Under the pieces are notes generated by a model. That model made no database searches. It saw only the letters and a program-made list of their open reading frames with translations, and had not been told where the DNA came from. From positions 1 through 45,136 of the forward strand of contig CAJFCJ010000089.1 of assembly GCA_904063045.1 (NCBI GenBank): a stretch of DNA of 45,136 bases, in the 5' to 3' direction. Below are positions 6,665-45,136 of the stretch, piece after piece. This DNA is from Dimorphilus gyrociliatus (taxonomy: Eukaryota; Animalia; Annelida). The translations under genes were made by a program, and so were the position numbers. Each line of letters opens with the position of its first letter. Within the stretch, counting starts at the first letter, position 1.

Positions 6665-7299
6665 TGTACAACTTTGGTTATATTTTACATGCTTGAACTC
6701 TATTATTTTATGCAACATATACATGTACATGTTAAAACCTATGCAAGAAAATGCTATAACATTGGCCAAACATAAGTCTGATTAGTCAGCTTGAAGGCTC
6801 ATCTTTAATCACCAATAAAGGTTTGGCCAAGTTATAATCTAATTAACTTGCCTAGGGTGTGGCCAAGTTATAATTCAATTAACCTTCCTAAATGTTGAAC
6901 CTTGTAACATCCTGTTACTAAAGATAAATATGAACTACACATTTCGGCAACTGTAAAGTGATGATTGGATTTCAGAGGCCAACCTCAAAGTATATAAATC
7001 CTCACTATTCTCATTTGGCATGCGGCTTCCATCTGGATCCAAGGACCTGGGAAGATAACCTGGAAACAACCTCCACTGGAACCTTCCATCTACTCCTCAA
7101 CATTGGAAGACAGTTTGGTAATTTGGCAACTTGCTATTACGAACTATCTACTCTGCTATTGAACTCTCATATTGTTACTTGCTTAAGTATTATTATTGTG
7201 AATAAACTGTTTAAATTTAAACATTTGTTTAAAGGTTTGAGTAGAACCAGTAGTGTTATAACTTGCAAATGCATAGATTTTGCCAGCAAGAGCAGTACA
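6665..7299 (+). mobile_element. Solo LTR (635 bp) of the Gypsy family, TSD GTGT
   Basis: Termini TGTAC...GTACA, with GTGT at 6661-6664 and 7300-7303. About 24 substitutions versus the LTRs at 18224 and 38100 (~96% by eye). Confidence 0.95.
6991..7206 (+). promoter_or_regulatory. LTR TATA box and polyadenylation signal
   Basis: TATATAAAT at 6991-6999 and AATAAA at 7201-7206 lie in the expected U3/R order and are conserved in all three LTRs. There is a duplicated GGCCAAGTTATAAT motif in U3 (~6825-6875). Confidence 0.55.
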
Positions 7300-9194: not shown

Positions 9195-10000
9195 TGAATA
9201 GGGGTGAAACCATACCTGGGTGAAATCGTACCTTGATGAAGTTTTAACTGTCAACATGAGAAAATTAAGAAATGAAATAATTAATTTATTTGTTTTAATA
9301 AATTTGTGATATAAAAGTACCAGTTTTTTTCAGGTCAGCCATTTTGAATTTGTTTGTTGATTACTTGATAAGAGAATCTTGAAATTGTATTATAAATATT
9401 TGTTTCAAAGTTTTCCACTGTTTTTCAAATAATAAATTAAACATTTCAAATCTGCACATTTTGAAATATGGCAATCAAGTGCAAAAATTGCAAACTTACT
9501 GTTTATGGAAGACAGAAGAGAAAATTCTGTTTGCTATGTAATGAGCTTCTTCATGAAAAATATATCATTAGTAAGAATTTTGTAATTCATTTGGTCAATT
9601 GTAAATATACAATTATTTTTGGTTTGTATTTATGAAAAGCTTCTCTCTGAGAAGATTATCAAATATCAGAGAAAAAAATATGGTGATATAGAGAAGAAAG
9701 TATTTGAAATTTGGAAAGATTATAGGCTTGGAAGGATATTAGCTGATGAACTATTAATCCAAAGTTCTTATATTTATACTCCATAGTTGTTATTATCTAT
9801 TCTTTTCTTTAGTTAACATATAGTAGAATAGCTCTTCAATACATACATTTTCATATTTTTTTTATTTCCATATGCATCAACAGCAGTAGTTTTACTTGGT
9901 CATAGCAAGGATTCACCCCTATTGGGTACAGATTCACCAGGAATGGGTACGGTTTCGCCTGTCTCCTGGTTTAACCCAGGTATGGTTTCACCCCTATTCA
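9195..10000. mobile_element. Non-autonomous DNA transposon (MULE-like) with 27-bp inverted repeats
   Basis: TGAATAGGGGTGAAACCATACCTGGGT at 9195-9221 has an exact reverse complement at 9974-10000. There are subterminal GGGTACGGTTT(C/A)ACC-type repeats and an internal transposase-like remnant. No TSD was found. Confidence 0.65.
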
Positions 10001-10003
10001 ATT

Positions 10004-10120
10004 TCTTTTTTGTTATAAATGACATTAGTGCGCCAGTATCACATATTGCAATTATTTCTCTTCCATTATGGTTTTTCAAATTGAACATCTTCTCTCCCTA
10101 ACTTGATTGCTAACACTGAT
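10004..10120 (-). mobile_element. Remnant of a retroelement second-protease (PR2) domain from a diverged family member
   Basis: FNLKNHNGREIIAICDTGALMSFITKK aligns with FRLKNQKGQEVIALCDTGALRSFITEK at ~42085-42165. The DTG motif is at 10032-10040. Confidence 0.7.
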
Positions 10121-14203: not shown

Positions 14204-17200
14204 TTAGTTTGTATTGATTTCCTTCCTCACTTCTCTATTTCTTCGTTCAACTAGTCCATTGCTCTGGCTTCTATAAGCTGTTGTTTGGATTTTCTCAATA
14301 CCTAATACCTTCATAAACTCTTTAAAAGCTTTACCAACAAAGTTTCTTCCTTGATCTGTCAACATTTGTTTTGGAATTCCAAAAATGGGAAAAAATCTGT
14401 TGAAAAGAAGGTTTGCAATTTCTTTACTGGTTTGCTGTTTGAGTGCATATAAAACTGTGTATCTACTGAAATGATCCACTATCACAAGTATGAATCTGAA
14501 TGACTTAACCATGGGTAAGGGTCCCATTATATCCATGGCTACCAACTCCATTGGTGATGCAGGGTGAAAGGTTTCTACCAAAGGGTATACTCTACTCCTA
14601 CCATTCATTTGTTCACACAAAGTGCAATCCTTTATTGAATTCTCAATCATAATCTTTAATTTTGGGTGCCAAAAGGTCTTTGTAATTATTTGTAATGTCA
14701 TTCTGGGTCCATGGTGATTGTGAATTTTATTTTTATGGAATTTAGGGAGCAGAGTTAGCATCAAATGGTCAGGTAAAACCAGAATGTTTCTTTCTTCAAG
14801 GATAATCCAGATCATTTCCTTGTGAACAAACATCTCCATTATGAAAGGTGTAAAAGTTCCAAAATAAGGAATAGGTAGCTGACCATCCAATGTTAAATAT
14901 TCTTTAATTGATTTTAAATTCACATCTTTTTCTTGCTCTGACTGTAAGTCAACAGAAGACAAATCAATTTTCTCTTCACTGTTATCACTGGTAGCTACAA
15001 AAGTTAACTCTGGTGTATGTTCATACTGTTCCATTTTAACTGAAATAGAGGGAGAATTCTCCTTTTTGATCTTTCCATGAATTAGCTCTTCAAATGTTAC
15101 TTTCCTTGGGGGTGTATATTCTTCTAATCTTGTTAATGCATCTGCTCTATTTTTTCGTCCTGTCACATAGTTAATTGTAAATTTTAAATCCATTAAAGCC
15201 ATGACCCATTTTGCTGTGCTGACATTCAATTTGTTTTGCTTAAATGTTTGTACTAGACTCTGATGGTCAGTATATAAAAAGAATGGCTTGTCTTGAAGGT
15301 AATGTAAAAATTTCTTTACAACCCAGTAAACCCCAAATGCTTCCTTTTGATAGGCTGCATATTTCATTTGATTATTGTTGAATTGTTTTGAAGCGTAGGC
15401 AATGGGTTTCATTGTTTTCTTCCCATTCTCATCTACATAAACTTGTTCAAGAACTCCTCCTACAGCTACATTCGATGCATCTGTTGTTAAGTGAAAATCT
15501 TTAGCAAAATCAGGTAGTTGTAATACAGGAGGGTTAATTACTGCATCTCTCAACTTGAAAAATGATTGCTTGGCTTCCTCAGTCCATTGCAATTTATCCT
15601 TTTTCCCATGTAGTTTCATTAACATATACAGAGGTTTAGCTACTCTTGCAAAATCTTGTATAAATTTTCTGTAATAGCCACAAAATGCAACAAAGCTTAG
15701 TAGTGAATTTGCAAACACTGGTGGCTGTAAATTATATAATTTATCTGTCTTGGACTTATCTGTTTCAATCCCCTTTTCTGATACAATGTGTCCCAAGAAT
15801 TGAACTTGTTCTTTCAAAAACACACATTTACTTAGTTTAATCTTAAAATTGTACTTTTGAATCTGTTGAAGAATGGTCTCCAATGCTTCCCAATGTTGGT
15901 CCAGCGACTTGGTAAATATTATTATGTCATCAAGGTAGTTTAGGCACAAATGCTTTACATCCTTTAGCACAAATGAATTCATTACATAACTAAAATGAGG
16001 AGGGGCATTGGTTAATCCAAAAGGCATCTTAATAAATTCAAACAAGCCAAAAGGTGTAATAAATGCTGTTTTAGACCTATCTTCTTTCTTGATGTTAATG
16101 TGGTGGTATGCACTTGTCAAATCCATTGTAGAAAAGAATTTATTTCCTCCTCCCAAATGGTCAAAAAGATCATCTTGATTTGGCAGTGGATACTTGTTTT
16201 TAACTGTCATTTTGTTTAGTTTTCTATAATCTACACACATTCGTAGACTACCTTCCTTCTTTCTTACGAAAACAATTGGTGAAGCCCAATTGCTCTTGCT
16301 TGGTTGAATAACTTTGCTTTTTACCAATTCAGCTATCTGTTGCTTACATTCTTCTTGTTTTTGAGGAGGCATTCTATATGGCCTTTGTCTATATGGTGTT
16401 GAACCTGGTTCAAGAGTTATTTCCAAGGGTGGTACCTCTGGATTACCAATATCAAATCTGTCTTCTGCAATAGTTTCTTTATATTTTGCCAGAATTTGGG
16501 TAACTTTGTTCTTCATCTCGGGATTTTCTTGTTCAATTGTTGTCTGAAGGGTATGTATTTGACTCTCATTCTTTTTCATAATAAGAGGAACTGGGTAAAA
16601 CCCTTTGAAAGATAAGTGTTGTGTTCCAACAGGGTAATTCTTTTCTGTACCTGGCTGGAGTATAATCTGTCTCTTGCCAAAGTCAAGGGTAGCTCCATTT
16701 TGTTGTAGAAAGTCACACCCAATAATACATTGTTGTGTAATGATTTTGTTGATCAGAAAGTGTTGTTTAATAATCTTTTCATTAAAATAAAGTCTGAGAA
16801 TGATTTCTCCACATATCTCGATGCTATTTCCTGAAGCATCTCTAGCATTTTTCACAGTTTGTTCTGGGAAGGATGCTTTTCCTTGAACTTGTCTTAATAC
16901 CTTTTTTGAAATGAAAGATCTGTCACTACCAGAGTCTATCAAGGCATCAAACTTAAAACCAGTATTAGTTTCAAATTGTCCAATAAATGTTGAAGCATTT
17001 CGCTCAGATTGTTTGCTTTGTAACAGCTGACAAGTGGATTCGTCACTATCTGAAAAACAGAGAATATCTTGAACTTCGTCGTTTTCTGACATGCTTTCAT
17101 TGTCTAATGTTTCTAATTTTTGTAGCTTAGGTTCCTCTTTCAGTATCGTCTTTGCTGGTTGATTTTTCTTATAATACCTATTTGTTGTAGTTGGTGCATA

Positions 17201-18163
17201 CTTTTGGACTTTTTGGCTTGAAAACTTTTCTTTAGTAGCATTTTTGTTGTCAGGTACATGCTTTCTATTCCAGAAATTTGGGGTTTCTGTAGAAGCATCT
17301 TTTCTGATTACCTGGGTCTTTTTGGTCTCTTTTCTTTGTTGAGTTTCCAATTTTGACACCATTGTGATCGGTTTTCTTTGAGTTAGTTTTAATGAAGTTT
17401 CTGCTTGCTTAGCAGCCTCATATAGTTCTGCCAATGTTTGACATTTAGGATGTAAGGTGTACACTAAATGTAGAATATCCTGTTGTAATCCTCTTTGTAA
17501 AACTTCCATCAGTTTTATTTCTTTCATAGTTGCAAGCAATTGTGGTTCCATTGGTCTAGGTGGAGAAAACCTCTTTATCAATTTCTTTGCTCTATTAACA
17601 AACTGAACCACACTTTCGCCATTCATTTGCTTTAAGTTAAGCAATTTCTCCTGATACTCCAAAGGATCTAGATCAAATTCGTCATGGAGGGCTTTCCATA
17701 TTTCCTCCACAGTAGGCTCTCCATCCAGAGCCAACACCAAATCCTTTGCGGGACCAGTTAAATAATCTAAAAGATTTGCTTTCACAACATCTTCTCCTAT
17801 CCAACCATAAGCATAACATGCCTGATTAAAGTCTTCTTTGAATTTTGAACACTCCTTGCTTCCATCATACAACTTGAGAATAGTTCTTTGAGGGCGGTCC
17901 CAAGCAGCCCTTAATGCTTGAATTACTGTTGTGATATCAACATTTGGGTTCTGTGCTGGGTGATGTGTTCCATCTCCATGATCTGTTGGAATTGTGATTC
18001 GATTTCTTTTCATTTCACTCACCAATCTATCATAGTCTTCAATTAGTCTTTGTTGCCTTTCTGACATTCCTGCTGGCTGAATTGTAATTGTTGGAGTTGC
18101 TGGGGTTGAAGGGTTAGAGTCTGTAACTGCCCCAGTGGCGTTTCCATTTCCTCCTTCTGCCAT
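14204..18163 (-). CDS. gag-pol: Gag-Pol polyprotein in a single frame, truncated just after the integrase catalytic Glu
   Basis: ATG at 18163 (MAEGG). It contains a retrotransposon-gag capsid, PR (LIDSG at 16928-16936; IIGCDFL), RT ([11 protein letters not shown]; YLDD at 15926-15937), RNase H (TDAS..E..TDH..D) and IN (HHCC; D,D35E). Confidence 0.95.
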   Translation of the reverse strand: MAEGGNGNATGAVTDSNPSTPATPTITIQPAGMSERQQRLIEDYDRLVSEMKRNRITIPTDHGDGTHHPAQNPNVDITTVIQALRAAWDRPQRTILKLYDGSKECSKFKEDFNQACYAYGWIGEDVVKANLLDYLTGPAKDLVLALDGEPTVEEIWKALHDEFDLDPLEYQEKLLNLKQMNGESVVQFVNRAKKLIKRFSPPRPMEPQLLATMKEIKLMEVLQRGLQQDILHLVYTLHPKCQTLAELYEAAKQAETSLKLTQRKPITMVSKLETQQRKETKKTQVIRKDASTETPNFWNRKHVPDNKNATKEKFSSQKVQKYAPTTTNRYYKKNQPAKTILKEEPKLQKLETLDNESMSENDEVQDILCFSDSDESTCQLLQSKQSERNASTFIGQFETNTGFKFDALIDSGSDRSFISKKVLRQVQGKASFPEQTVKNARDASGNSIEICGEIILRLYFNEKIIKQHFLINKIITQQCIIGCDFLQQNGATLDFGKRQIILQPGTEKNYPVGTQHLSFKGFYPVPLIMKKNESQIHTLQTTIEQENPEMKNKVTQILAKYKETIAEDRFDIGNPEVPPLEITLEPGSTPYRQRPYRMPPQKQEECKQQIAELVKSKVIQPSKSNWASPIVFVRKKEGSLRMCVDYRKLNKMTVKNKYPLPNQDDLFDHLGGGNKFFSTMDLTSAYHHINIKKEDRSKTAFITPFGLFEFIKMPFGLTNAPPHFSYVMNSFVLKDVKHLCLNYLDDIIIFTKSLDQHWEALETILQQIQKYNFKIKLSKCVFLKEQVQFLGHIVSEKGIETDKSKTDKLYNLQPPVFANSLLSFVAFCGYYRKFIQDFARVAKPLYMLMKLHGKKDKLQWTEEAKQSFFKLRDAVINPPVLQLPDFAKDFHLTTDASNVAVGGVLEQVYVDENGKKTMKPIAYASKQFNNNQMKYAAYQKEAFGVYWVVKKFLHYLQDKPFFLYTDHQSLVQTFKQNKLNVSTAKWVMALMDLKFTINYVTGRKNRADALTRLEEYTPPRKVTFEELIHGKIKKENSPSISVKMEQYEHTPELTFVATSDNSEEKIDLSSVDLQSEQEKDVNLKSIKEYLTLDGQLPIPYFGTFTPFIMEMFVHKEMIWIILEERNILVLPDHLMLTLLPKFHKNKIHNHHGPRMTLQIITKTFWHPKLKIMIENSIKDCTLCEQMNGRSRVYPLVETFHPASPMELVAMDIMGPLPMVKSFRFILVIVDHFSRYTVLYALKQQTSKEIANLLFNRFFPIFGIPKQMLTDQGRNFVGKAFKEFMKVLGIEKIQTTAYRSQSNGLVERRNREVRKEINTN

Positions 18164-18201: not shown

Positions 18202-18219
18202 ATCCTGTCGACTGCGCCA
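18202..18219 (-). promoter_or_regulatory. Primer-binding site, tRNA-Ser
   Basis: TGGCGCAGTCGACAGGAT lies 4 nt downstream of the 5' LTR. Its complement ATCCTGTCGACTGCGCCA matches the 3' end of invertebrate tRNA-Ser(AGA/CGA) as I recall it (ATCCTRCCGACTGCGCCA), with one mismatch. Confidence 0.8.
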
Positions 18220-18223
18220 AATT

Positions 18224-18858
18224 TGTACTGCTCTTGCTGGCAAAATCTATGCGTTTGCAAGTTATAACAATACTGGTTCTACTCGAACCTTTAAACAAAT
18301 GTTTAAATTAAAATGGTTTATTCGCAATAATAATACTTAAGCAAGTAACAATATGAGAGTTCAATAGCAGAGTAGATAGTTTGTAATAGCAGGTTGCCAA
18401 ATTACCAAACTGTCTTCCAATGTTGAGGAGTAGATGGATGGTTCCAGTGGAGGTTGTTTCCAGATGATTTTCCCAGGTCCTTGGGTCCAGATGGAAGCTG
18501 CATGCCAAATGAGAATAATGAGGATTTATATACTTTGAGGTTTGTCTCTGACATCCAATCATCACTTTACAGTTGCCGAAATGTGTAGTTCATATTTATC
18601 TTTAGTAACAGGATGTTACAAGGTTCAACATTTAGGAAGGTTAATTGAATTATAACTTGGCCACACCCTAGGCAAGTTAATTAAATTATAACTTGGCCAA
18701 ACCTTTATTGGTAATTAAAGATGAACCTTCAAGCTGACTAATCAGACTTATGTTTGGCCAATGTTATAGCATTTTCTTGCGTAGGTTTTAAGATGTACAT
18801 GTATATGTTGCATAAAATAATAGAGTTCAAGCATGTAAAATATAACCAAAGTTGTACA
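18224..18858 (-). repeat. 5' LTR of copy 1 (635 bp)
   Basis: TGTAC...GTACA termini, about two substitutions versus 38100-38734, adjacent to the PBS. The outer flank is GTGA. Confidence 0.95.
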
Positions 18859-19002
18859 GTGAAGGTTAAGGGAAACTATATAAATTTTATAGTCTCTTTA
18901 TCTCGTAGTTGCATAATAGCACATTTTCGTCATTGTTACATCTTTTAAAACCCTTAAAAGAGAATATAAAGAATGATGAATTTATTGCATTCATACAATT
19001 GT

Positions 19003-21924: not shown

Positions 21925-22480
21925 TTCAAAAGCTGCCTAGTAAGGTATGGGAATGTTTGATACAGTGGAGTAGATTAGTGAGAAAAGTTTGAGCTGCTCC
22001 AGCCAACTAAGCAAACACATTAAGAAAGAAACAATTCTTTATGTGGTCTTTAATTGTCTTTAATTTTGGATGCCAGAAGGCTTGTTCTAAGGTATGAATT
22101 GTTATATCAATACCATAATGCTCAAATAGCTGATGTTGATGAATTTGTCCAAGTAGGTTGGTTAAAGTTGATAGTGGTATTACAAGTAATGGTTGACAAC
22201 CATCTAAATACCATACTAGATCCTCTTTAACAAACATATTTTCAATGAAGTTTATATATTCATACAATGCTTCAGCATCAACATTTTCTCCCTCCAATTT
22301 CTCTACAACTTTCATCAGTGGAGTGTCTAAAATTTGTTCTGTATAGAAGTCTATTTTAACAGTTGTAGTTTTTAGTTTCATAACTTTAAATTGATTTTCA
22401 ATTGTTTCTTCATCATACTCATCATCTAAAGTATCATCTGAACAATCATCTAATTCTTCTAGATCCTCTTTATCGATATA
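21925..22480 (-). mobile_element. Diverged Gypsy pol remnant (connection region and integrase zinc-binding domain)
   Basis: FIENMFVKEDLVWY...LLVIP...IHQHQLFEHYG...AFWHPKLKTIKDHIKNC aligns with FIMEMFVHKEMIW...ILVLP...FHKNKIHNHHG...TFWHPKLKIMIENSIKDC of copy 1. PLYQTF follows downstream. Confidence 0.65.
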
Positions 22481-22540
22481 AAAGCATTTAAGCAGGGAGC
22501 CAAGTAAGAGCAGTACAATAGAATTTGTATAATGTTATTA

Positions 22541-22743
22541 TGAATTTATGGTAGGGGTCTTTAGTTATATTATGTTTCAGTTTTGCTTCCTTCTTCATCT
22601 GCTTTTTAGCCATTTGCATGTGTAGAGTAAAATAGATTCCTTCATTTGTAATCTTAAATTCTCTGGCTGGTAGTCCTTTATACCATATGCCCAATGTTGG
22701 TAATACCTTCTTTTTGATTCTTTTCTCACTGTATACATATTTT
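22541..22743 (-). mobile_element. env fragment from an older subfamily
   Basis: Clear nucleotide homology to ~39797-40000. It reads VYSEKRIKKKVLPTLGIWYKGLPAREFKITNEGIYFTLHMQMAKKQ in one frame. Confidence 0.85.
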
Positions 22744-22829
22744 TTACATTGGCATCTAAATCAAACCCAAAGTGGACAGCCCATCAGGTATTATATAATT
22801 CTGGTATACTTATATCTCTTTCTCTAACA

Positions 22830-23745: not shown

Positions 23746-23779
23746 CAAATACTTTGTGTCTATTTGATTTTGTAAATAA

Positions 23780-30890: not shown

Positions 30891-30970
30891 ATGGAAAATC
30901 CCAAAGGTAGTAACAGGCATTCAGTCCTGAATCAACTCCCTTAGTGAACAGGTCTAGTATTATTTTTATA

Positions 30971-32294: not shown

Positions 32295-32527
32295 TATATA
32301 TTTATATTTTTCCAGATTCTCTTCCAATTTTTACATTTTCTGGGTAATTGTAGGCCAATACATTGGAAAGATTGTCTAATCTTTAGAAGTGTTTTCAGCA
32401 TGAGGAATCAATATAGTAACAGCACTGCAATATGAATGACAATAACACAAAAAGTCTAAAACATTTCTTAAAATCTTGCATTAGCAAAAATCAGATATTC
32501 GACATTTTTGATGATTAACTATTTGTT

Positions 32528-34181
32528 CTACTTTCTAATTGAAGTTTTTACACAAAAGAAAGGATTGTAATAAATCCCCAACATTTTTATTGTTTGTCCA
32601 TCTATTGGAAAATAATTCAAAATTTCATCATTCTTATAAATACCATATGATAAATTTTTCATTTCTATTTTAGAGCATTTTTTTTGTAGATTTTCAAATT
32701 TTGCAATTACTTTTTCAACTAACGAGCAGCTGCTAACATTGATTTGCTTTAATGATTCTAATGATTGTTTGAGTCCTTCACAAATATCAAAAAATCCATT
32801 ACTCATTTTCATATTCCCAGAAAAAAATATTTCTTCAATTTTAGAACATTTTTTTAAAAGAATTCCAAGTTTTTTGCATTGATCTTCTTCTAAATTGCAT
32901 TGTTGGACATCAATACATCGTAATGTTTTTGATGATTGTTCAAGTCCTTCACAAACTTTAGAAAATCCATTTCCCATTATCTTGTTACATTTTAAATCTA
33001 TTATTTCTATTTTTGAACAGTTTTTTAAAAGATCCCCAAATTCTGTGCATTGGTTTTCTTGTAAATAGCATTTGTTAAAATAAATATACTTGAGTGTTTT
33101 TGATGAATTCTTAAGTCCATTACAAACATTGCTAAATTCATTCATCAATAATTTATTATCTGAAAGATCTATTGTTTCCACTTTAGAACATTTTTCTAAA
33201 AGATTTCCAATTCTCTCAATTTGTTCATATTTTAATAAGCAGCTTCTAAAATTAATAGACTTTAATGTTTCTGATGATTGTTTGAGTCCTTCACAAATAT
33301 GAGTAAAACCATTATTTATATTCCAATACTTAGATAAATGTATTTCTTCTATTTTAGAACATTTTTTCAAAAGATTTCCAAAATTTTCGCAATCCACTTG
33401 AACAATCACTAAAATTAATATAATTCAATGTTTCTGAAGATTGCGCAAGACTTTGACATATCTCAATAAATCCAGCACACATACCGTTATTCTCAGATAA
33501 ATCTACTTTTTCTATTTTAGAACATTTTTTTAAAAGTATTCCCAATTTTTTGCATTGTTCTTGTCTCAAATCACAGTTCAGAAATTTAATAGACTTTAAC
33601 ATTTCGGAAGATTGTTCAAGATATTTACAAATATAAAAGTTGCCATTGGAGATTCTTGTATTGTTTGATAAATCTAATGCTTCTATTTTAGAACATTTTT
33701 TAAAAAGATTTTCCAATTTTATACATTGTTCTGATTTTAGAGAACAGTTGTTGAAAGCAATAAATTTTAATGTTTCTGATGATTGTTCAAGTCCTTCGCA
33801 AATGTCAAAAAAGCCATTTTGCATTTCAGGATTGAATGATAAATCTATGGTTTCTATTTTAGAACATTTTTTCAGAATGTTTCCAATTTTTGAGCAATGT
33901 TCTTGTTTTAAAGAGCAGTTATTAAAGACAGTACAATTTAATGTTTTTGATGATTTTGCAAGTCCTTCAAAAATAATTTTGTAGTTGTCAGTTTTCTCTG
34001 GCATATTGTTTTTTTCTAACCAAAATACAATTCTAACAATATCTTCTCTTTTCCATAGATTGAAATATAAAATTAAAATTTTTGAATATACAAAACATAC
34101 AAATATAAAATTTGAAATATTTAGTTGTGAAGATCTTGAAAGAATAAAATGACTTTCAGAGATTTCTTTGACAAAAGACAA
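32528..34181 (-). pseudogene. RI-like LRR gene with one frameshift at ~33400
   Basis: ORFs 33354..34181 and 32528..33409 carry consecutive 57-aa units (LKKCSKIETIDLSFNPEMQNGFFDICEGLEQSSETLKFIAFNNCSL). Confidence 0.85.
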
Positions 34182-34729
34182 GATTGGATATCCAGTGAAT
34201 TTCTTATGTTTAAGTACTAATAATAATCATAAAAACCTTGTTTACATAGGACAATAACAATAACATTTTAGGCTTATGAAATGGTTATAATATCAGTCAT
34301 GTTTTAAATTCGTAATATTTGCTTGTATCTAAAAAACATAACGTAATATTCTTACTCAAAAATATCTTACAGAAGGAGGGAAGCCATAGTAATAACCACC
34401 ATTTTAAATGGGTAATTGTAGTTATAAACATTTTATATTCATAAATTTCTAACAGTCACTCTATTAATTTACTAACTTTTAAATGTCAACGAAGTTGGGG
34501 AGAAGTTTCCCACTCTGAAAAAGTCAGCACAAGTTAGTCCTTTCAGTAGCAGGAGTATGACTAGATTGATGAAAAAAGGAGTATGTTTTCTCTTGGATAA
34601 AGAAAACTTCCATGTTAGAAAAGGCATTAATTTCTGAAACAATCCTCCTAGTAAACAGATCTAGTATAACTTTAGAATACAGTTATATTATTCCTACGAA
34701 TTGGTTATTTATATCATATTCTCTCAATT

Positions 34730-35190: not shown

Positions 35191-35442
35191 GTATGCATTT
35201 AAGTTTATTTTAATAGTTGACAATGCTTTCACTTTTTGTATGCATTCAGATGAATTTGTAAAAGAAGAAAAGCTTGATTCAATAAATAATCAAGAATATT
35301 TTTCTATTGACATTTCTAAGTTAAACCAGAAACTACATTGACATCAACTTCTAATCCATGGCTACTTTTCAACTAAAAGTAACAAAAGCAATATTTTAGT
35401 TGTTGCTACAAATATTTTTTGTCTATTTGATTTTGTAAATAA

Positions 35443-36604
35443 TTAACATGTGATCTTTACTTTAGTATTTTTGTTTTGCAGTCTTAAAATATATGATTGT
35501 TGATCCTTTGTTTGTTTACAGGCTCCAAAATTAATGATTCTTATAGTTTTAGATGATTGAAGTCCATCACAAATTTTGGCAAGTCCATTATCAACATTTC
35601 AATTTCCAAATAGAGAAATGACTTCAATTCTAGAACAACATTTTAACATTTTACCAATATTTATACATTGATTTTCACTTAGATTACAATCACTCAAGTC
35701 AATTTCTTTTAAAGTATTGCATAATGAATCAGAAATTGTATCACAAACAATCAATAATCCATTTCCTATTGCTCTATTGCCTGATAAATTAATTACTTCT
35801 AATTTGGAACAAACTTTCAAAACATTTCCCAAGATTTCACATTCACTACTCATTATTTCACATCTACTCAAATCAATCAATACCAAGGTTTTTGATGAGT
35901 GAATCAGTCCATCACAAATTTTTAAAAATCCACTTTTCATGCTCACATTCCTTGATATATCAAATATTTCTATATTATTACAAACATTCAACATATTTCC
36001 AATAAATGTACACATTGTACTAGTTAATTGACACTTTTTAAAATTTATCCTCTGTAAAACATGAGATGATTGAACAAGTCCATCACATATCTCTAATATT
36101 CCATTTCCCATACTATTATTCCAATGTAAATCAATTGTTTCTATATTAGAACATTTTTTCAGCAAATCTCCAACAAAAATACAATGAGTTTTTGTCAGAT
36201 TACATAAACTAAAATCAATATATTTCAATGTGTTTGATGAATTTTCTAATCCATCACAAATCTTTGATATTCCATTTGATATTTTCATATTACTAACTAA
36301 TAAAAATGTCTCTTATTTAGGACAATTTCTCAAAATATTTCCAACATCAACACACTGATTCTCTGTTAGCTTACAACCACTAAAATCAAGATATTTTAAA
36401 GTGTCTCTTGATTGTATAAATCCATCTTTAATCCTTGATAATCCGTTAAATATATTGAAATTACCAAATATTTCAATTGTTTCTAAATTAGAGCAATTTT
36501 TAAGTAAATTTCCAAAATTTTTACATCCATTTTCTGTTAGGCCACAGTAGCTAAATTGTAATTTTTTTAATGTTTTTGATGATTTCATTAGTTCATCAAT
36601 AATC
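35443..36604 (-). pseudogene. RI-like LRR array, duplicate of 23780-24900
   Basis: Colinear high identity to the 23780 copy. CGA has become TGA at ~35600, and there is a frameshift at ~36300. Confidence 0.85.
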
Positions 36605-36890
36605 TACAAATTGCAACAACATCATAACTTTTATGATGGAGAAAGGAGGACAAATTGTCTGTGGGAATGAGGAAATTGAAATGGTTTGTTTTGTTTTATA
36701 ATTATGAAAATTTAATTTTCATATCTTTATTTTGCCATCAACATCATTTTGTATTGATATTGATTTATAAGTCTATGTTTACTTAATGACAATTGAAGTA
36801 GTACAGACAGTAGATTTTCTCTTTAAATTACAGTAAAATAATTCAAAAATTTGGTGTCTCTTTTTTATTTTTTTAGAATGAAAATTCAAA

Positions 36891-37615
36891 ATGTACTCAA
36901 CTTATTCTTTTAAATGGTACTATCATTATTTCTTTAACTCATGCATATTGTCATTTGTTTCTAATATTTTTTATCTTCTTTTTCACATAGATAAGAATAG
37001 AAACAGGAAGTTTTTCAATATTGAAAAACTATCTTATCTATTTGATAATGTAGAAGAATGGATTGTTGATACAAAAAGTGAACTTGAATTTAAAATTAAA
37101 AAGTTAAAGAGAGAATCTACTAAATTTGATGGTTTTATCTTCATTGAACTGCTCTTTAAAACAAGAACATTGCTCAAAAATTGGAAACATTCTGAAAAAA
37201 TGTTCTAAAATAGAAACCATAGATTTATCATTCAATCCTGAAATGCAAAATGGCTTTTTTGACATTTGCGAAGGACTTGAACAATCATCAGAAACATTAA
37301 AATTTATTGCTTTCAACAACTGTTCTCTAAAATCAGAACAATGTATAAAATTGGAAAATCTTTTTAAAAAATGTTCTAAAATAGAAGCATTAGATTTATC
37401 AAACAATACAAGAATCTCCAATGGCAACTTTTATATTTGTAAATATCTTGAACAATCTTCCGAAATGTTAAAGTCTATTAAATTTCTGAACTGTGATTTG
37501 AGACAAGAACAATGCAAAAAATTGGGAATACTTTTAAAAAAATGTTCTAAAATAGAAAAAGTAGATTTATCTGAGAATAACAGTATGTGTGCTGGATTTA
37601 TTGAGATATGTCAAA
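36891..37615 (+). pseudogene. LRR gene fragment containing an inverted near-identical duplicate of 33455-33922
   Basis: 37146-37615 is the reverse complement of ~33455-33922 with about one substitution, fused to a different 5' segment. Confidence 0.8.
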
Positions 37616-37634: not shown

Positions 37635-38099
37635 ACCAATAGACATGAAGAAATCTTCAGGAAATAAGTTATGAAAGTCAACATCATCAACATGGAAAAA
37701 TTTTAAAAAAGGTGAAATTAATGCAAAACAGCTTCTGTACTTGTGCTTAGAATTGTATTTTCGAAAAATATTTGAACCAGTATTGTACTGTGCAGATAGC
37801 ACTGATAGAGACAACCAATATTGACCTAGTTTTGTGTAGGGTGGGGCATATACAATGCACTGCATAAATTCTATTAAAGATTACTTTAATTAAATGCCTG
37901 ATATGCTCTCATTCGAAGTTTTACACGACATGCATTATTTAGACAAGGAGTGGAAGAAACCATACCAATAATAAATGAGTTATTTCGCTCATTCGAAGAA
38001 TGAAATAATAGGCAAAACATATTCATGGAGAGGCTGGCAGGTTGAAATATTTATATAATTGTTTTTGAAGAGTCTATTCAAAAATTATGTGTGGAACAC
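37635..38099 (+). repeat. Duplicate of 25836-26510, interrupted by retroelement copy 2
   Basis: Homology ends exactly at the LTR edge (AAATTATGTGTGGAACAC|TGTAC). Confidence 0.8.
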
Positions 38100-38734
38100 T
38101 GTACTGCTCTTGCTGGCAAAATCTATGCGTTTGCAAGTTATAACAATACTGGTTCTACTCGAACCTTTAAACAAATGTTTAAATTAAAATGGTTTATTCG
38201 CAATAATAATACTTAAGCAAGTAACAATATGAGAGTTCAATAGCAGAGTAGATAGTTTGTAATAGCAGGTTGCCAAATTACCAAACTGTCTTCCAATGTT
38301 GAGGAGTAGATGGATGGTTCCAGTGGAGGTTGTTTCCAGATGATTTTCCCAGGTCCTTGGGTCCAGATGGAAGCTGCATGCCAAATGAGAATAATGAGAA
38401 TTTATATACTTTGAGGTTTGTCTCTGACATCCAATCATCACTTTACAGTTGCCGAAATGTGTAGTTCATATTTATCTTTAGTAACAGGATGTTACAAGGT
38501 TCAACATTTAGGAAGGTTAATTGAATTATAACTTGGCCACACCCTAGGCAAGTTAATTAAATTATAACTTGGCCAAACCTTTATTGGTAATTAAAGATGA
38601 GCCTTCAAGCTGACTAATCAGACTTATGTTTGGCCAATGTTATAGCATTTTCTTGCGTAGGTTTTAAGATGTACATGTATATGTTGCATAAAATAATAGA
38701 GTTCAAGCATGTAAAATATAACCAAAGTTGTACA
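38100..38734 (-). repeat. 3' LTR (635 bp)
   Basis: TGTAC...GTACA termini, preceded by the PPT. The outer flank is ACAC (GTGT in element sense). Confidence 0.95.
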
Positions 38735-38747
38735 ACTTCCCCCTTCT
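38735..38747 (-). promoter_or_regulatory. Polypurine tract
   Basis: AGAAGGGGGAAGT abuts the 3' LTR. Confidence 0.9.
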
Positions 38748-38765
38748 TTGTGAAGATGAGTCCCT

Positions 38766-41185
38766 TCATCTTGATTTAATGAGAATTACAGGTGGTTGTT
38801 CTTCTTCATTAGTTTGATGTTGACTAAAGCTACAACTTTGTTTCATTAGTTTTGGGTTTTCAGGAGAGTTATCTGTGCTCTCACTTGGGGTAGCAATTTC
38901 TTCTCTTTGTTTTCTTCTTCCAATAATATAGTTGAAAATGATGATACATACCATTGACACTACAATACTCAAACAAATATTTCGTATGATAACATAAAGT
39001 GTTTTCCCAGGTTTATAGTACCAACTATGGAAAAACTTTTTAATTCCAGATAAATTGGGTACAATGCCATTTTTCTCTGCAACAGTGACCATGTTATCAT
39101 ACCTTGCCTGCTTCTGTTCCAGTGAACTGATAACTTGCTTAATTTTTGAGTGCTGGTATGCAATATCCTTCTTTACCCCATGGTGGAGTAGATCAGCTAA
39201 TCTGGCAATTTCAATTTTTGGTTCAGAAAGGTGATTGTGGATATGTAACTGCATGGATTTTGCAGACACAGTGTGAAATCTGCATCCTCTTTCTGAATAA
39301 TACACATACGTTTTGTCTTTCATTGGTTGGTTTCTTATAGGATTTAATGGGTTGTGAGTTGTTTTGTAGAATAACTTGTTAGACTTACACTCATTATAGG
39401 TAATCTCTTCAGGATTGACTTGCTGTAAAACATGAGTAACTGGTTCTACTTGGAAAAGCAGGTTGTTCATGGTGACAAGTAAAAATTGAGAACATTTGTT
39501 ATTCTTTTTTATCATGCTTAAGTCACAAACTACTTCTGTTGAGGCTATTGGTGAACATTGTTTAATTATAGCTAATTCTCCCATCTGACTACTGTGCATT
39601 CCCAACTCATTTGTTAACACTGTGGTCAATTGAGGATCCAAATTTGCTAGTAATGCCATCATTCTGCTTCTTTGAACAAATTGATTGCAGAGAAGACTTG
39701 ACAGCTGTTGGGTAAACTTTTTTAAATTCTTAAAATTTGAATCAATACCATGTAGTAAGGTAGATGTTTGGGCAGCTTCTCTCATTTCCAATGGGAATTT
39801 GTGGTATGGGTTTTTACTTATCTTATGTTTCAGTTTTGCTTCCTTCTTCATCTGCTTTTTAGCCATTCTCATGTGTAGAGTAAAATAAATTCCTTCATAG
39901 GTAATCTTAATTCTCTGGCTGGTGGTCCTTTATACCATATGCCCAATGTTGGTAATACCTTCTTTTTGATTCTTTTCTCACTGTATACATATTTTGAAAT
40001 CGTGACAGATTGTCTTGTTGCCCTTGTCCAATTGACTGCTTGCAGCATTTCTTGGATATAATAGTTATCCAGCTCCCAGTAAGATGGACTAATGGGTTGT
40101 TGTAGATGATATATCACAACTTCCTTGAGTGTGCCTTTATTTCTCATTAGTTTATACTTTGTGTTTGTTTCTCTGTACCATTGGTTAAGACTTGGTAAGG
40201 GGTTGTTTCGCTTGTATAGTATAATTTGTTCTTTAACTTTATTGGGATAGTTTAATAGTCGTTTTTCTTCATTTTTGCCAATCTTCTGATATTGTAGCAA
40301 ATTGTATAGGTGTTCCTTGCTTGTTTCCTGTATTAAACTCTGTTCCTCCAGTGGTACTAGTACTTTTGTTCCAGGACCACCAATTCCATCAATAAACTTA
40401 TCTTGATAAGGGATGTCCAGAATAGAATACCCTGGACAAGAATAGTGACCAGCAAATTTGATACAACTAATTCTGTTGCTAATTTTTATCCATGGTGATT
40501 GTTGCCCAAGTGTGTAATTATTCTTGAGGTTCCTAAAGACAATAATTGCCTCTTCTGTTTCACAATAGGACTGCCCTGGTAAACAATCTTCCAGGTAGTC
40601 CAGATTAGTTGTAATTTTCATATTAGGAGGTTGCCAATATGCTTTGCCAAACTGGATAATTGTGGTGTATTCCAGCACCTTGGTCGTTGTTGGCCATGTG
40701 TAGGCAGCAGGAAACTGATCTTGGTGGATCCAAGTGTTTCTTTTCACCATTAAAGGTTTTCCTTGAAAAGATCGTTTGTCTTTTATCATCTGTCTGCATT
40801 GATCATGAGTTACTTTGATAACTGAGTTAACAATCCTCCTCTTCTTTGCTCCAAAGAAATAGTAAGTGTAAAAATTAGTTCTTAGATACACTTGACATTT
40901 TACTGCTCTTGTTTCAATTTCTTCCAAGTTCAATTCATAGATATCAGCTGTAATTGTCTTGGTTTCTTGTGATTCTATATTACAAGTTGGCTCATCTGCT
41001 AGATCAAATGCCTGGCTTGGTAGTTGGTTAGAACAAAAGTATAATGGTGGTTTAAATGTTAAGGTAATGTTTGCACTTGTAACATGGGCACCTTGGTAGG
41101 ATGGTTTTGGGACTGTTATTGAGTGGATGCAGCCACAGATCACCATTACAGTCATCACTAGTGGAAGCCACAACATCTGTTTCAT
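38766..41185 (-). CDS. env: Envelope-like glycoprotein (~806 aa), class III fusogen-like; 1-nt deletion at 39909-39910
   Basis: Signal-like MKQMLWLPLVMTVMVICGCIHS, a Cys-rich ectodomain, N-glycosylation sequons (NIT, NYT, NWT, NLS), TM ICLSIVVSMVCIIIFNYII followed by GRRKQR, and a short tail. The frame is restored by comparison with 22541-22743. Confidence 0.85.
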
Positions 41186-44100
41186 GTTAGCTCTTCCTGT
41201 GTTGGCTATAGTTGAATGGTTGAAAATTTTGTGTTGTTGTTCCACTCTGATAGTTATTCCATCTTCTAACTCTATATATTGTGGTTCCACTTCTTGTTGG
41301 GAATCTAATTGTTCAGAGATGATTTTAGTCTCATCTAAAAATATGACTGACTCATTGTCTGTGTCACTTGTATTTTCTTTCTCATCTTGGGATGAATCTA
41401 CCACTATGAGGGACTCATTATCTGAATGGGTTATGTCAATAATTTCACCTTCAATAATTATTGACTCATTATCCGAATGGGTTATATCAATAATTTCGCT
41501 TTCAATAATTATTGACTCATCGTCTGAACTAGATATTTCATCTTCTCTATCAGAGATAATGTTTGCCTCTGAATCTGTATTTTGATCCAGTTCATTATTT
41601 GTTTCTGTGTCATCACTTTCAGATGAGCTTGAAGGTTCATTGAGACTGTAATTACTGTCTGTTTTGAAAGTATTGCTTGTGTCATAACCAGTATCAGAAT
41701 TAGTAACTTCCATCTCTGAGTCATCACTATCTGAACTTTCTGATGAAGAGTCATGCTGTCCCATCATGGCTATAGTGACTTTGTTTAGTTGAGGTTGCCT
41801 TATTCTTTCAGCCAGGTTCCCTTTCCTTCTATCAAATTTGAGAGAACACTGTTTAGCTTCAAAATTGAGGTTTGCTCCCACAGTTTGTAGGAAATCACAA
41901 CCAAGTATTATTGCTATGTCTAGATTTTCCATAACTATAAATTCTTGTTCCATACTTTCTCCAGCAAATTGGATATTCAGCTTTACGCTTCCTTTTTGCT
42001 TTAAAGCTTTCCCATCAGCTGAAGTTATAATTGGTAAGCCAATTGTTTCTTTATCCATAATTGTAACATCCATTAACTTGATTTCTTTTTCAGTAATAAA
42101 GGATCTCAATGCTCCTGTGTCACACAAGGCAATGACTTCTTGGCCTTTTTGATTCTTCAAACGGAATTGGAAGTCATTTCTTCCTTCTACCTGAGAAAGA
42201 TATTGGAGGTGTGTTATTTCCTTCTCCACAAGGTGAAAGATTGTTGTTGCTTCTTTCCCTGTTTCCAACTTATTAGATTCATTGGCTAGTCTTAATCTGC
42301 TACCATGTACCAACTTGCATGTATTATCATCCATTTGTATTTCATATATCCACTTTTGATGATTGACTTTTGTTATTCGGTATGGGCCTAACCATTTTAA
42401 AGAAGGGATTTTTGTTATTGCAATTCTTGCAGCATCATTTCTTAAGAATACTTCATCATCAACCTCAAAATATTTTGGAAGATTGAGATTTCTATTCTTT
42501 CTTTCCCTATATTGTTCTTTTGCCATGATGGATTTACAGAAGGCTGTAGCTCTTAACTGTACTAATTGCTGCTGGTGATTGAATACAAATAGTACATTTG
42601 TTTCAGGAGAGGTAGTATGCATTGTTACATCAATCAGTGTTCTTGTGCTGGTGCCAAAAAGAAGTTCCTGGGGTGGTAGTCTTGTACTTCCTACAGGTGA
42701 TTGATTCAAAAATGCTTGAATCAAGGGTAGGTTTGCAACCCAGTTATGCTGATTTTCTTCCACCACTAATTTATTGATTTCCTTCCTCACTTCTCTATTT
42801 CTTCGTTCAACTAGTCCATTGCTCTGGCTTCTATAAGCTGTTGTTTGGATTTTCTCAATACCTAATACCTTCATAAACTCTTTAAAAGCTTTACCAACAA
42901 AGTTTCTTCCTTGATCTGTCAACATTTGTTTTGGAATTCCAAAAATGGGAAAAAATCTGTTGAAAAGAAGGTTTGCAATTTCTTTACTGGTTTGCTGTTT
43001 GAGTGCATATAAAACTGTGTATCTACTGAAATGATCCACTATCACAAGTATGAATCTGTATGACTTAACCATGGGTAAGGGTCCCATTATATCCATGGCT
43101 ACCAACTCCATTGGTGATGCAGGGTGAAAGGTTTCTACCAAAGGGTATACTCTACTCCTACCATTCATTTGTTCACACAAAGTGCAATCCTTTATTGAAT
43201 TCTCAATCATAATCTTTAATTTTGGGTGCCAAAAGGTCTTTGTAATTATTTGTAATGTCATTCTGGGTCCATGGTGATTGTGAATTTTATTTTTATGGAA
43301 TTTAGGGAGCAGAGTTAGCATCAAATGGTCAGGTAAAACCAGAATGTTTCTTTCTTCAAGGATAATCCAGATCATTTCCTTGTGAACAAACATCTCCATT
43401 ATGAAAGGTGTAAAAGTTCCAAAATAAGGAATAGGTAGCTGACCATCCAATGTTAAATATTCTTTAATTGATTTTAAATTCACATCTTTTTCTTGCTCTG
43501 ACTGTAAGTCAACAGAAGACAAATCAATTTTCTCTTCACTGTTATCACTGGTAGCTACAAAAGTTAACTCTGGTGTATGTTCATACTGTTCCATTTTAAC
43601 TGAAATAGAGGGAGAATTCTCCTTTTTGATCTTTCCATGAATTAGCTCTTCAAATGTTACTTTCCTTGGGGGTGTATATTCTTCTAATCTTGTTAATGCA
43701 TCTGCTCTATTTTTTCGTCCTGTCACATAGTTAATTGTAAATTTTAAATCCATTAAAGCCATGACCCATTTTGCTGTGCTGACATTCAATTTGTTTTGCT
43801 TAAATGTTTGTACTAGACTCTGATGGTCAGTATATAAAAAGAATGGCTTGTCTTGAAGGTAATGTAAAAATTTCTTTACAACCCAGTAAACACCAAATGC
43901 TTCCTTTTGATAGGCTGCATATTTCATTTGATTATTGTTGAATTGTTTTGAAGCATAGGCAATGGGTTTCATTGTTTTCTTCCCATTCTCATCTACATAA
44001 ACTTGTTCAAGAACTCCTCCTACAGCTACATTCGATGCATCTGTTGTTAAGTGAAAATCTTTAGCAAAATCAGGTAGTTGTAATACAGGAGGGTTAACTA

Positions 44101-44605
44101 CTGCATCTCTCAACTTGAAAAATGATTGCTTGGCTTCCTCAGTCCATTGCAATTTATCCTTTTTCCCATGTAGTTTCATTAACATATACAGAGGTTTAGC
44201 TACTCTTGCAAAATCTTGTATAAATTTTCTGTAATAGCCACAAAATGCAACAAAGCTTAGTAGTGAATTTGCAAACACTGGTGGCTGTAAATTATATAAT
44301 TTATCTGTCTTGGACTTATCTGTTTCAATCCCCTTTTCTGATACAATGTGTCCCAAGAATTGAACTTGTTCTTTCAAAAACACACATTTACTTAGTTTAA
44401 TCTTAAAATTGTACTTTTGAATCTGTTGAAGAATGGTCTCCAATGCTTCCCAATGTTGGTCCAGCGACTTGGTAAATATTATTATGTCATCAAGGTAGTT
44501 TAGGCACAAATGCTTTACATCCTTTAGCACAAATGAATTCATTACATAACTAAAATGAGGAGGGGCATTGGTTAATCCAAAAGGCATCTTAATAAATTCA
44601 AACAA
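39869..44605 (-). CDS. pol: Pol-PR2-Env polyprotein segment (RT/RNase H/IN/GPY-F/second protease/acidic linker/Env)
   Basis: 1578 uninterrupted codons with YLDD (44486-44497), D,D35E, KWLGPYRI, CDTG and the Env signal, all in one frame. Confidence 0.93.
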   Translation of the reverse strand: MFEFIKMPFGLTNAPPHFSYVMNSFVLKDVKHLCLNYLDDIIIFTKSLDQHWEALETILQQIQKYNFKIKLSKCVFLKEQVQFLGHIVSEKGIETDKSKTDKLYNLQPPVFANSLLSFVAFCGYYRKFIQDFARVAKPLYMLMKLHGKKDKLQWTEEAKQSFFKLRDAVVNPPVLQLPDFAKDFHLTTDASNVAVGGVLEQVYVDENGKKTMKPIAYASKQFNNNQMKYAAYQKEAFGVYWVVKKFLHYLQDKPFFLYTDHQSLVQTFKQNKLNVSTAKWVMALMDLKFTINYVTGRKNRADALTRLEEYTPPRKVTFEELIHGKIKKENSPSISVKMEQYEHTPELTFVATSDNSEEKIDLSSVDLQSEQEKDVNLKSIKEYLTLDGQLPIPYFGTFTPFIMEMFVHKEMIWIILEERNILVLPDHLMLTLLPKFHKNKIHNHHGPRMTLQIITKTFWHPKLKIMIENSIKDCTLCEQMNGRSRVYPLVETFHPASPMELVAMDIMGPLPMVKSYRFILVIVDHFSRYTVLYALKQQTSKEIANLLFNRFFPIFGIPKQMLTDQGRNFVGKAFKEFMKVLGIEKIQTTAYRSQSNGLVERRNREVRKEINKLVVEENQHNWVANLPLIQAFLNQSPVGSTRLPPQELLFGTSTRTLIDVTMHTTSPETNVLFVFNHQQQLVQLRATAFCKSIMAKEQYRERKNRNLNLPKYFEVDDEVFLRNDAARIAITKIPSLKWLGPYRITKVNHQKWIYEIQMDDNTCKLVHGSRLRLANESNKLETGKEATTIFHLVEKEITHLQYLSQVEGRNDFQFRLKNQKGQEVIALCDTGALRSFITEKEIKLMDVTIMDKETIGLPIITSADGKALKQKGSVKLNIQFAGESMEQEFIVMENLDIAIILGCDFLQTVGANLNFEAKQCSLKFDRRKGNLAERIRQPQLNKVTIAMMGQHDSSSESSDSDDSEMEVTNSDTGYDTSNTFKTDSNYSLNEPSSSSESDDTETNNELDQNTDSEANIISDREDEISSSDDESIIIESEIIDITHSDNESIIIEGEIIDITHSDNESLIVVDSSQDEKENTSDTDNESVIFLDETKIISEQLDSQQEVEPQYIELEDGITIRVEQQHKIFNHSTIANTGRANMKQMLWLPLVMTVMVICGCIHSITVPKPSYQGAHVTSANITLTFKPPLYFCSNQLPSQAFDLADEPTCNIESQETKTITADIYELNLEEIETRAVKCQVYLRTNFYTYYFFGAKKRRIVNSVIKVTHDQCRQMIKDKRSFQGKPLMVKRNTWIHQDQFPAAYTWPTTTKVLEYTTIIQFGKAYWQPPNMKITTNLDYLEDCLPGQSYCETEEAIIVFRNLKNNYTLGQQSPWIKISNRISCIKFAGHYSCPGYSILDIPYQDKFIDGIGGPGTKVLVPLEEQSLIQETSKEHLYNLLQYQKIGKNEEKRLLNYPNKVKEQIILYKRNNPLPSLNQWYRETNTKYKLMRNKGTLKEVVIYHLQQPISPSYWELDNYYIQEMLQAVNWTRATRQSVTISKYVYSEKRIKKKVLPTLGIWYKGPPARELRLPMKEFILLYT
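41412..41528 (-). repeat. 51-bp (17-aa) tandem repeat in the acidic linker
   Basis: Units start at 41412, 41463 and 41514. Peptide: (DNES)IIIE(G/S)EIIDITHS. Confidence 0.9.
41830..42180 (-). other. Second retropepsin-like aspartic protease domain (PR2)
   Basis: ALCDTGALRSFI (DTG at 42113-42121), a flap-like ITSADGKALKQKG and IILGCDFL (41888-41909), in the same layout as PR1. Confidence 0.9.
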
Positions 44606-45136
44606 GCCAAAAGGTGTAATAAATGCTGTTTTAGACCTATCTCTTTCTTGATGTTAATGTGGTGGTATGCACTTGTCAAATCCATTGTAGAAAGAATTTA
44701 TTTCCTCCTCCCAAATGGTCAAAAAGATCATCTTGATTTGGCAGTGGATACTTGTTTTTAACTGTCATTTTGTTTAGTTTTCTATAATCTACACACATTC
44801 GTAGACTACCTTCCTTCTTTCTTACGAAAACAATTGGTGAAGCCCAATTGCTCTTGCTTGGTTGAATAACTTTGCTTTTTACCAATTCAGCTATCTGTTG
44901 CTTACATTCTTCTTGTTTTTTGAGGAGGCATTCTATATGGCCTTTGTCTATATGGTGTTGAACCTGGTTCAAGAGTTATTTCCAAGGGTGGTACCTCTGG
45001 ATTGCCAATATCAAATCTGTCTTCTGCAATAGTTTCTTTATATTTTGCCAGAATTTGGGTAACTTTGTTCTTCATCTCGGGATTTTCTTGTTCAATTGTT
45101 GTCTGAAGGGTATGTATTTGACTCTCATTCTTTTTT

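Follow-up and report, generated by a model that had tools for sequence, protein, structure and literature searches.

Gypsy elements that carry an envelope gene (env) with a gB-type product have been catalogued across animals (PMC13524379). In the annelid Dimorphilus gyrociliatus, the Dingle elements (Dinophilidae Gypsy-like elements) are of the Ty3/gypsy type, encode a gB-like Env downstream of the integrase (IN), and form the most abundant class of transposable element of this animal (PMC7854359). Annelida_Polychaeta_Dgyr_errantivirus_1 is recorded with seven copies, a gB-type (HSV/gB) Env, a 635-nt long terminal repeat (LTR) and a primer-binding site (PBS) 4 nt past the LTR, and its reverse transcriptase (RT) falls in clade E together with bryozoan and flatworm elements (PMC13524379). 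We analysed a 45,136-nt stretch of D. gyrociliatus DNA (the window; contig CAJFCJ010000089.1, positions 1 to 45,136) in which a sequence-only reading had picked out an LTR element with Gag, a protease (PR1), RT, RNase H, IN, a second protease (PR2), an acidic linker and Env in one open reading frame (ORF). This element very probably belongs to the same family as Dingle and Dgyr_errantivirus_1. We consider it moderately probable that, as a whole, it is a likely Dingle-family element with Gag, Pol, PR2 and a class III Env in one frame, from which signal peptidase likely frees Env.

The errantiviruses of Drosophila (gypsy, ZAM and Idefix) make 4-bp target-site duplications (TSDs), have a separate spliced ORF3 and use a gag-pol frameshift. 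They resemble the present element in their Ty3/gypsy pol plus env and tRNA-Ser-type PBS, but differ in their F-type (class I) Env. A strict insect errantivirus has an F-type Env in a separate ORF3, whereas the Env described here has a predicted class III fold and is in frame with pol; under the broad definition, which takes a Gypsy pol with an F-type or gB-type env (PMC13524379), the class III fold matches place the element among the errantiviruses. Atlas virus, a member of the Belpaoviridae, is about 9.2 kb long and encodes one Gag-Pol-Env polyprotein without stops or introns, from which host proteases are expected to free Env (PMC9094657), and it bears out the earlier statement that in-frame env is known from that family. 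It differs in its Bel/Pao RT and class II phlebovirus-like GN/GC, and its description mentions no second retropepsin in the part available (PMC9094657). Belpaoviridae combine a Bel/Pao RT with a class II Env; here the motif is YLDD rather than YVDN, the RNase H is gypsy-type and the Env fold is predicted to be class III.

Structure and family identity of the element

One Ty3/gypsy family is represented in the window by two young copies and one solo LTR. Both copies lie on the minus strand. Besides an LTR and a PBS, copy 1 (18858-14212) has an open Gag-PR-RT-RNase H-IN frame, and it breaks off abruptly inside IN at 14212; copy 2 (45136-38100) is cut by the window end and is not a 3' fragment. 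They are 99.7% identical over an overlap of about 2.37 kb (14212-16576 and 42772-45135), where the sequence-only reading had put ~1.9 kb, and are near-identical copies of the kind that the broad errantivirus definition asks for (PMC13524379). By arithmetic the joined element is 9,319 nt long with about 2,652 codons, in agreement with the ~9.3 kb and ~2652 amino acids (aa) proposed earlier. Because the LTRs of the two copies differ at 2 of 635 sites, the element has been active recently.

18224..18858, minus strand: 5' LTR of copy 1, TG...CA, 635 nt (self-comparison)
18202..18219, minus strand: PBS, tRNA-Ser type, 4 nt past the copy 1 LTR
16990..18163, minus strand: Gag, about 390 aa from the Met at 18163, without a CCHC knuckle (Pfam PNMA, E 0.0011, below the cut-off)
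16655..16987, minus strand: PR1 (DSGS ... IIGCD), catalytic Asp codon at 16936
14212..16450, minus strand: RT, RNase H and IN of copy 1, ending inside IN at 14212
43333..45136, minus strand: RT (5' part with three frame breaks) and RNase H of copy 2, truncated where the window ends
42270..43333, minus strand: IN of copy 2, with zinc domain, core and GPY-type C-terminal domain
38735..38750, minus strand: polypurine tract (PPT), before the copy 2 3' LTR
38100..38734, minus strand: 3' LTR of copy 2 (self-comparison)

The element has the TG...CA LTRs, tRNA PBS, PPT and short (4-bp) TSD of Ty3/gypsy, together with the PR-RT-RNase H-IN order, a gypsy-type RNase H and an H2C2/rve integrase. These features, like the continuous frame and the intact catalytic motifs of both proteases, were observed directly. 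In an RT tree of 35 rows, built from database matches without GyDB references, the element groups with one D. gyrociliatus gene model at 100/100, and the deep nodes are weak. Gag is 25% identical to the Gag of the related protein P0008 (E 4.5e-13), and its atlas neighbours are Retrotrans_gag clusters at 0.89, which we take as a lead. No CCHC knuckle was found in P0001, as the sequence-only reading had noted; Vesta1b is a precedent, lacking both the knuckle and a gag-pol frameshift (PMC5408684).

The family assignment follows from LTR length, LTR spacing, PBS, env type and the closest named proteins, all of which match. The distance from the last base of LTR 1 to the last base of LTR 2 is 8,684 nt in the published Dgyr_errantivirus_1 row (10983-2299) and 8,684 nt here (9,319-635), and the second LTR is 635 nt in both (PMC13524379). 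The 12-mer of the PBS is the one listed for Dgyr_errantivirus_1, and it is classed as Ser_AGA/UGA/CGA in 25 rows (PMC13524379 supplement). That PBS occurs in 26 of 1,512 rows, where Dgyr_errantivirus_1 is the sole non-insect and the sole gB-type entry (PMC13524379). Among the seven matches to PR2, linker or Env that were looked up, the named proteins are D. gyrociliatus gene models only. Three points weigh on the other side. The match rests on described features rather than on a sequence-level comparison; Dgyr_errantivirus_1 is said to carry a chromodomain by HHpred, whereas none was found after IN here by Pfam or a seven-sequence profile, though such a domain does not define Dingle; and Dgyr_errantivirus_1 is labelled 'GAG-POL', whereas the frame here continues into env (PMC13524379).

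The proposal of an undescribed lineage of Metaviridae therefore gives way to a named family (PMC7854359, PMC13524379). The question of whether a named family already has the same architecture has a divided answer, in that the family is named but a single ORF and a second protease are not described in the text of either paper (PMC7854359, PMC13524379). The text on Dingle mentions no single ORF, second protease or acidic linker, although its domain-map figure may show them (PMC7854359), and the word 'protease' occurs once in the main text of the other paper (PMC13524379). A literature search for 'Dingle' returned the genome paper only.

Continuity of the reading frame

Copy 1 has a natural frame of 1367 codons (18307-14204; Gag Met at 18163) that encodes the Gag-like protein, PR, RT, RNase H and IN. 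In copy 2 a natural frame of 1594 codons (44653-39869) encodes the C-terminal part of RT, RNase H, IN, PR2, the acidic linker, and the signal and first half of Env, and a second frame of 387 codons (39929-38766) encodes the remainder of Env with its transmembrane segment (TM). These frames run through without the copies being joined, so that gag passes into pol in copy 1, and IN into PR2, the linker and env in copy 2, with neither a stop nor a frameshift. As a control, the bases of 39869-44653 were shuffled 200 times; the longest run without a stop had a mean of 99 aa and a maximum of 181. The frame of copy 2 is broken at four points: at about 44.64, 44.69 and 44.92 kb, all within the 5' part of RT, and at about 39.9 kb, inside env.

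We compared 38000-45136 with contigs from four (X1, X2, X5 and X6) of seven listed sequencing runs; X1 and X2 share one study and may be the window's own source, and X5 comes from a different study. A single 5,579-nt X1 contig spans 39761-45135 and runs through all of the junctions between RT and Env; it has 2 substitutions, and its 4 gaps coincide with the copy 2 breaks. A single X2 contig bridges all of the junctions over 39826-43054, and X2 also joins RT to the LTR over 1,647 nt, equal to the distance in copy 1. X5 covers the IN-PR2-Env junctions in two long contigs, the loose ends of X1 and X5 contigs agree with the next bases of copy 1, and X6 yielded LTR scraps only. Single-base gaps separate copy 2 from the main contigs of X1, X2 and X5 at each of the four break sites, so these breaks are either assembly errors or private to copy 2. 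Contig depth in X5 is higher for env than for pol, a figure that we did not use, as contig depth cannot rank genes.

These data bear on the possibility that the order IN-PR2-Env arose by misassembly or in a single chimeric copy. The window does contain indel-type breaks and near-identical duplications, but the bridging contigs, those of X5 from another study among them, and the agreement with the published length (PMC13524379) have already largely refuted it, and we regard it as extremely improbable. The sequence-only reading holds as to a Ty3/gypsy element with Env and a second protease in one ORF, seen in the natural frames of both copies and, from RT to Env, in contigs of three runs, and as to the absence of stops and frameshifts between gag, pol and env; where it made one single-base correction, copy 2 has four frame breaks.

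Envelope

Env begins with a Met and a signal-like hydrophobic stretch, the sole one in the 1594-aa frame, and has one TM, at its end.

41105..41185, minus strand: Env Met and signal-like hydrophobic stretch (hydropathy)
38766..41104, minus strand: predicted class III (gB/rhabdovirus-G-like) Env, about 806 codons including the signal, with one break at about 39.9 kb (model and Foldseek)
about 39005-38913, minus strand: C-terminal TM of Env

The signal-like stretch corresponds to residues 1157-1183 of P0002, and six of the eight Env relatives in the alignment have a similar N-terminal signal. We predict that Env is a class III fusogen because of the Foldseek ranks, the matches of its relatives to Rhabdo_glycop_FD and an atlas lead (Monjiviricetes_fusion at 0.89). 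Foldseek against the PDB ranked the Dhori virus GP and herpesvirus gB first (E about 1e-6), and against BFVD it returned rhabdo-, chu- and herpesvirus glycoproteins (E down to 2e-9), with low TM-scores in both. An exhaustive search with the region from PR2 to the N-terminal part of Env gave 61 matches, of which those in the Env region are nameless and two match Rhabdo_glycop_FD. The Env model that was built from nine sequences is confident over residues 61-240 only, where its predicted local distance difference test (pLDDT) score is 66-94; its overall weakness (mean pLDDT 56, TM-scores 0.2-0.3) counts against the assignment. A single-sequence fold had a pLDDT of 32 and was useless.

Searches of a word index, with the PR2-Env region and, among longer proteins, with the Env alignment, gave no match, which is weak evidence, and a PDB sequence search with the N-terminal half of Env gave one chance match only. 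The Pfam match of the C-terminal half to Phlebo_G2_C (E 0.023) was below the cut-off and was dropped in favour of class III. A furin site is not claimed, as the R-x-x-R in mid-Env is not kept in the sister protein P0010. Loci L001-L004 were rejected as relatives; they match over 51 aa at 33% with no other element domain, which we attribute to chance.

A second protease and an acidic linker

Between IN and Env lie a second retropepsin and a linker rich in acidic residues.

41834..42250, minus strand: PR2, second retropepsin (DTGA ... ILGCD), Asp codon at 42121; the upstream stretch resembles a Gag/PR junction (Pfam RVP_2)
41186..41758, minus strand: acidic Ser/Thr-rich linker, 29% D+E, 26% S+T and 3% K+R over 185 aa

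PR2 matches RVP_2 with E 2e-6 (28.1 bits against a cut-off of 20.3), and both of the retropepsin motifs, D[TS]G and hhG-D, are present; against PDB sequences it gave weak ASPRV1 matches only (E 0.07-0.19). It is an intact-looking, predicted protease. It is 68% identical to the D. gyrociliatus gene model P0005, and its likely capture from elsewhere is indicated by an identity of 27-28% to PR1 but 47% to the Gag-following protease of P0008. The PR2 region matches the Gag end and PR of P0008 at 42% over 110 aa, with the homology beginning about 45 aa ahead of the Asp, and the end of the linker matches the stretch just before RT in the D. gyrociliatus gene model P0046 at 59% over 54 aa. From these matches, PR2 and the linker were likely captured together, as one block, from a related Gypsy family whose Gag is followed by this protease. 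Two considerations pull the other way. In a protease tree, PR2 groups with P0008 (a Gag-adjacent PR) and P0005 at 99/90, and PR1 joins this group as its sister at 90/89 in a short alignment whose bootstrap had not converged, so that an old duplication within the lineage could also have produced PR2; and P0046 and P0005, being gene models, may represent spliced chimeras.

PR2 could instead be a passenger of the recombination that brought env, its frame kept open only by the in-frame Env downstream, and without a role of its own; this is not exclusive of the other readings, and we judge it unlikely. Its foreign-looking origin would fit, as would the first two of the following relics in the window.

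22542..22745, minus strand: env relic of the same family, 94% at the DNA level, stop-free in one frame across the site of the copy 2 break
22025..22489, minus strand: integrase-region relic of a sister family, 88% aa identity to P0046, adjoining the env relic
9999..10085, minus strand: short PR2-like relic, 62-65% aa identity to PR2 and to the P0008 protease

The chimeric relic of two families at 22025-22745 suggests that such recombination, or nesting, has occurred. The passenger reading is countered by the retention of DTGA and ILGCD although the nearest relatives differ by 32% and 53%, and by the pattern of substitutions. We took 21 single substitutions from 40 rows shown (there are 127 further rows), excluding LTR rows, two adjacent pairs and one row in the C-terminal half of env. 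In this small, selected set, 13 are synonymous and 8 non-synonymous; none falls in the PR2 core, whereas all four in the linker change a residue.

X5 shows three skips of 59-66 nt (38414-38479, 39354-39412 and 42033-42092). Their GT..AG ends and good splice consensus lie on the plus strand, which is antisense to the element, and the skip of 60 nt sits in the X5 main contig. Introns of D. gyrociliatus have a median length of 66 bp (PMC7854359). X5 is not on record as RNA, and the skips give hints of abundant spliced antisense transcripts of the element, a possible silencing precursor. If the 60-nt skip is instead a DNA deletion, it would remove the PR2 residues right after the catalytic Asp and would favour the passenger reading.

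Other elements with in-frame env or a second protease

In-frame env is not unique to this element among Gypsy elements, since 4 of 51 long Pol relatives (P0088, P0092, P0101 and P0108) have an env family with one RT and one IN in one ORF. In two of the 51 (P0092 and P0110) IN is followed by a second PR that has no RT downstream; tandem gene-model polyproteins (a second PR and then a second RT) and P0074 (two RTs) were excluded as precedents. P0092 and P0118 are single-ORF Gypsy elements from unnamed ENA metagenome contigs of 11-12 kb, and P0092 has the order IN-chromodomain-signal-class III Env-TM-PR2-TM. P0110 is an unnamed single-ORF Gypsy polyprotein from the ENA metagenomes with a second retropepsin after the integrase. 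The set of P0088, P0108 and P0101, likewise ENA metagenome polyproteins, comprises single-ORF Gag-Env(class III)-PR-RT-RNase H-IN proteins and a Gag-Pol-F-type Env protein of 3,599 aa in which an acidic stretch precedes Env. The absence of PR2 from these three, which nonetheless carry env in a single ORF, agrees with a passenger role, whereas two unrelated elements, P0092 and P0110, also have a second PR after IN, which weighs against it.

The RTs of P0092/P0118, P0101, P0088, P0108 and P0110 do not group with that of the D. gyrociliatus element (deep nodes are weak), and neither do the second PRs of P0092 (23% identical to PR2) and P0110, which suggests separate origins. Among the 139 labels of the published chromodomain sheet, three read GAG-POL-ENV, one POL-ENV and three GAG-ENV-POL (PMC13524379); we infer that such labels mark fused ORFs. 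No paper describing an LTR element with a second protease turned up in a literature search, with subscription journals, Repbase, Dfam and GyDB outside its scope. A broader proposal, that env-fusing Gypsy elements gained a working second retropepsin beside Env more than once (IN-PR2-acidic stalk-Env in Dingle, IN-chromodomain-Env-PR2 in P0092), with one protease devoted to detaching Pol from the membrane-bound envelope stalk, is tentative and we consider it rather doubtful.

A proposed polyprotein and its processing

Polyprotein translation and the Env cleavage steps are both things that we infer. Genomic RNA would be translated into a single polyprotein of about 2,650 aa, a route for which Atlas virus is a precedent (PMC9094657). 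About 1,850 residues would be cytosolic, after which the internal signal sequence would thread Env into the endoplasmic reticulum, and the signal peptidase of the host would cut Env off at the signal. The cytosolic part would be processed by PR1 and probably also by PR2, which would lie on the cytosolic side and whose most plausible job is to free integrase from a membrane-tethered acidic stalk. Reverse transcription would be primed by tRNA-Ser.

The sequence-only reading had Env released by the element's own proteolysis. A dedicated role for PR2 in freeing Env from the polyprotein would suit its position between IN and Env, its intact motifs and the adjacency of a second PR to a class III Env in P0092/P0118 as well. 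However, a signal-like stretch lies between PR2 and the ectodomain, which would leave PR2 in the cytosol and make signal peptidase sufficient; the second PR of P0092 follows the TM of Env and so lies on the opposite side, and the two second proteases do not group. We consider such a role very unlikely, and favour signal peptidase because of the intervening signal-like stretch.

In insect errantiviruses, Env is made from subgenomic RNA. If Env here came mainly from such an RNA, spliced or internally started, with the Met at 41185, the fusion to pol would be incidental or a minor route. The signal stretch starts at that Met, which has A at -3 and would fit a separate env mRNA equally well; there is one weak acceptor-like site at about 41404, and a subgenomic RNA would sidestep the 1:1:1 ratio of Gag, Pol and Env that one ORF implies, a ratio that is itself a difficulty for a single polyprotein. 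On the other hand, the main contigs of three runs keep the frame open through the roughly 360 codons of PR2 and linker that separate IN from Env, and no sense-strand intron joint was seen among the 15 of 26 joints shown, a 5' leader donor being outside the stretch examined. We view a mainly subgenomic Env as possible, albeit on the unlikely side, and prefer the polyprotein with signal peptidase cleavage.

Solo LTR and neighbouring features

The third insertion of the family is a solo LTR.

6665..7299, plus strand: solo LTR of the same family, 24 differences, with a 4-bp TSD (self-comparison)

At the insertion flanks (18859-18862, 38096-38099, 6661-6664 and 7300-7303) the 4-mer is identical at two of the three insertions and similar at the third, and a target-site preference is possible (n=3). 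Coding pieces for C1q, TSP1 and chitin-binding (CBM14) domains lie around the solo LTR at 5474-8218; its insertion may have split a gene, as a TSP1/C1q frame (7615-7256) runs into the LTR.

The window also contains a cluster of leucine-rich-repeat (LRR) arrays with a 171-nt (57-aa) period (20134-20837, 23746-25434, 32528-34226, 35409-36610 and 37147-37615), including duplications at 95% (23746-24935 and 35409-36604) and, inverted, at 99.8% (33452-33920 and 37147-37615). A Tc1/mariner element at 30967-32298 has 38-bp terminal inverted repeats and a 326-aa transposase frame, and a second, partial DDE transposase lies at 22952-23494. A fold-back element of about 690 nt, resembling a miniature inverted-repeat transposable element, is found at 319-1007 with arms 76-80% complementary, and related pieces occur at 1597-1651 and 11531-11626. 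Two rhodopsin-family G protein-coupled receptor frames and an LDLa plus LRR gene occupy 3282-4136, 26512-27603 and 28544-30910.

Implications

The lineage is not new, its family having been named before; the texts leave the single ORF and the second protease unremarked (PMC7854359, PMC13524379), and one of the two papers takes the region that follows IN for a chromodomain (PMC13524379). The one-ORF, two-protease layout would itself be already known if the Dingle domain-map figure shows it (PMC7854359). If PR2 works, the element would have a retroelement polyprotein with two proteases and would be a clear case of an LTR element acquiring a fusogen without splicing. D. gyrociliatus is kept in culture and this element class is its main, recently expanded transposon, so that native material suits tests of whether Env comes from the polyprotein or a subgenomic RNA, of PR2, and of antisense silencing.

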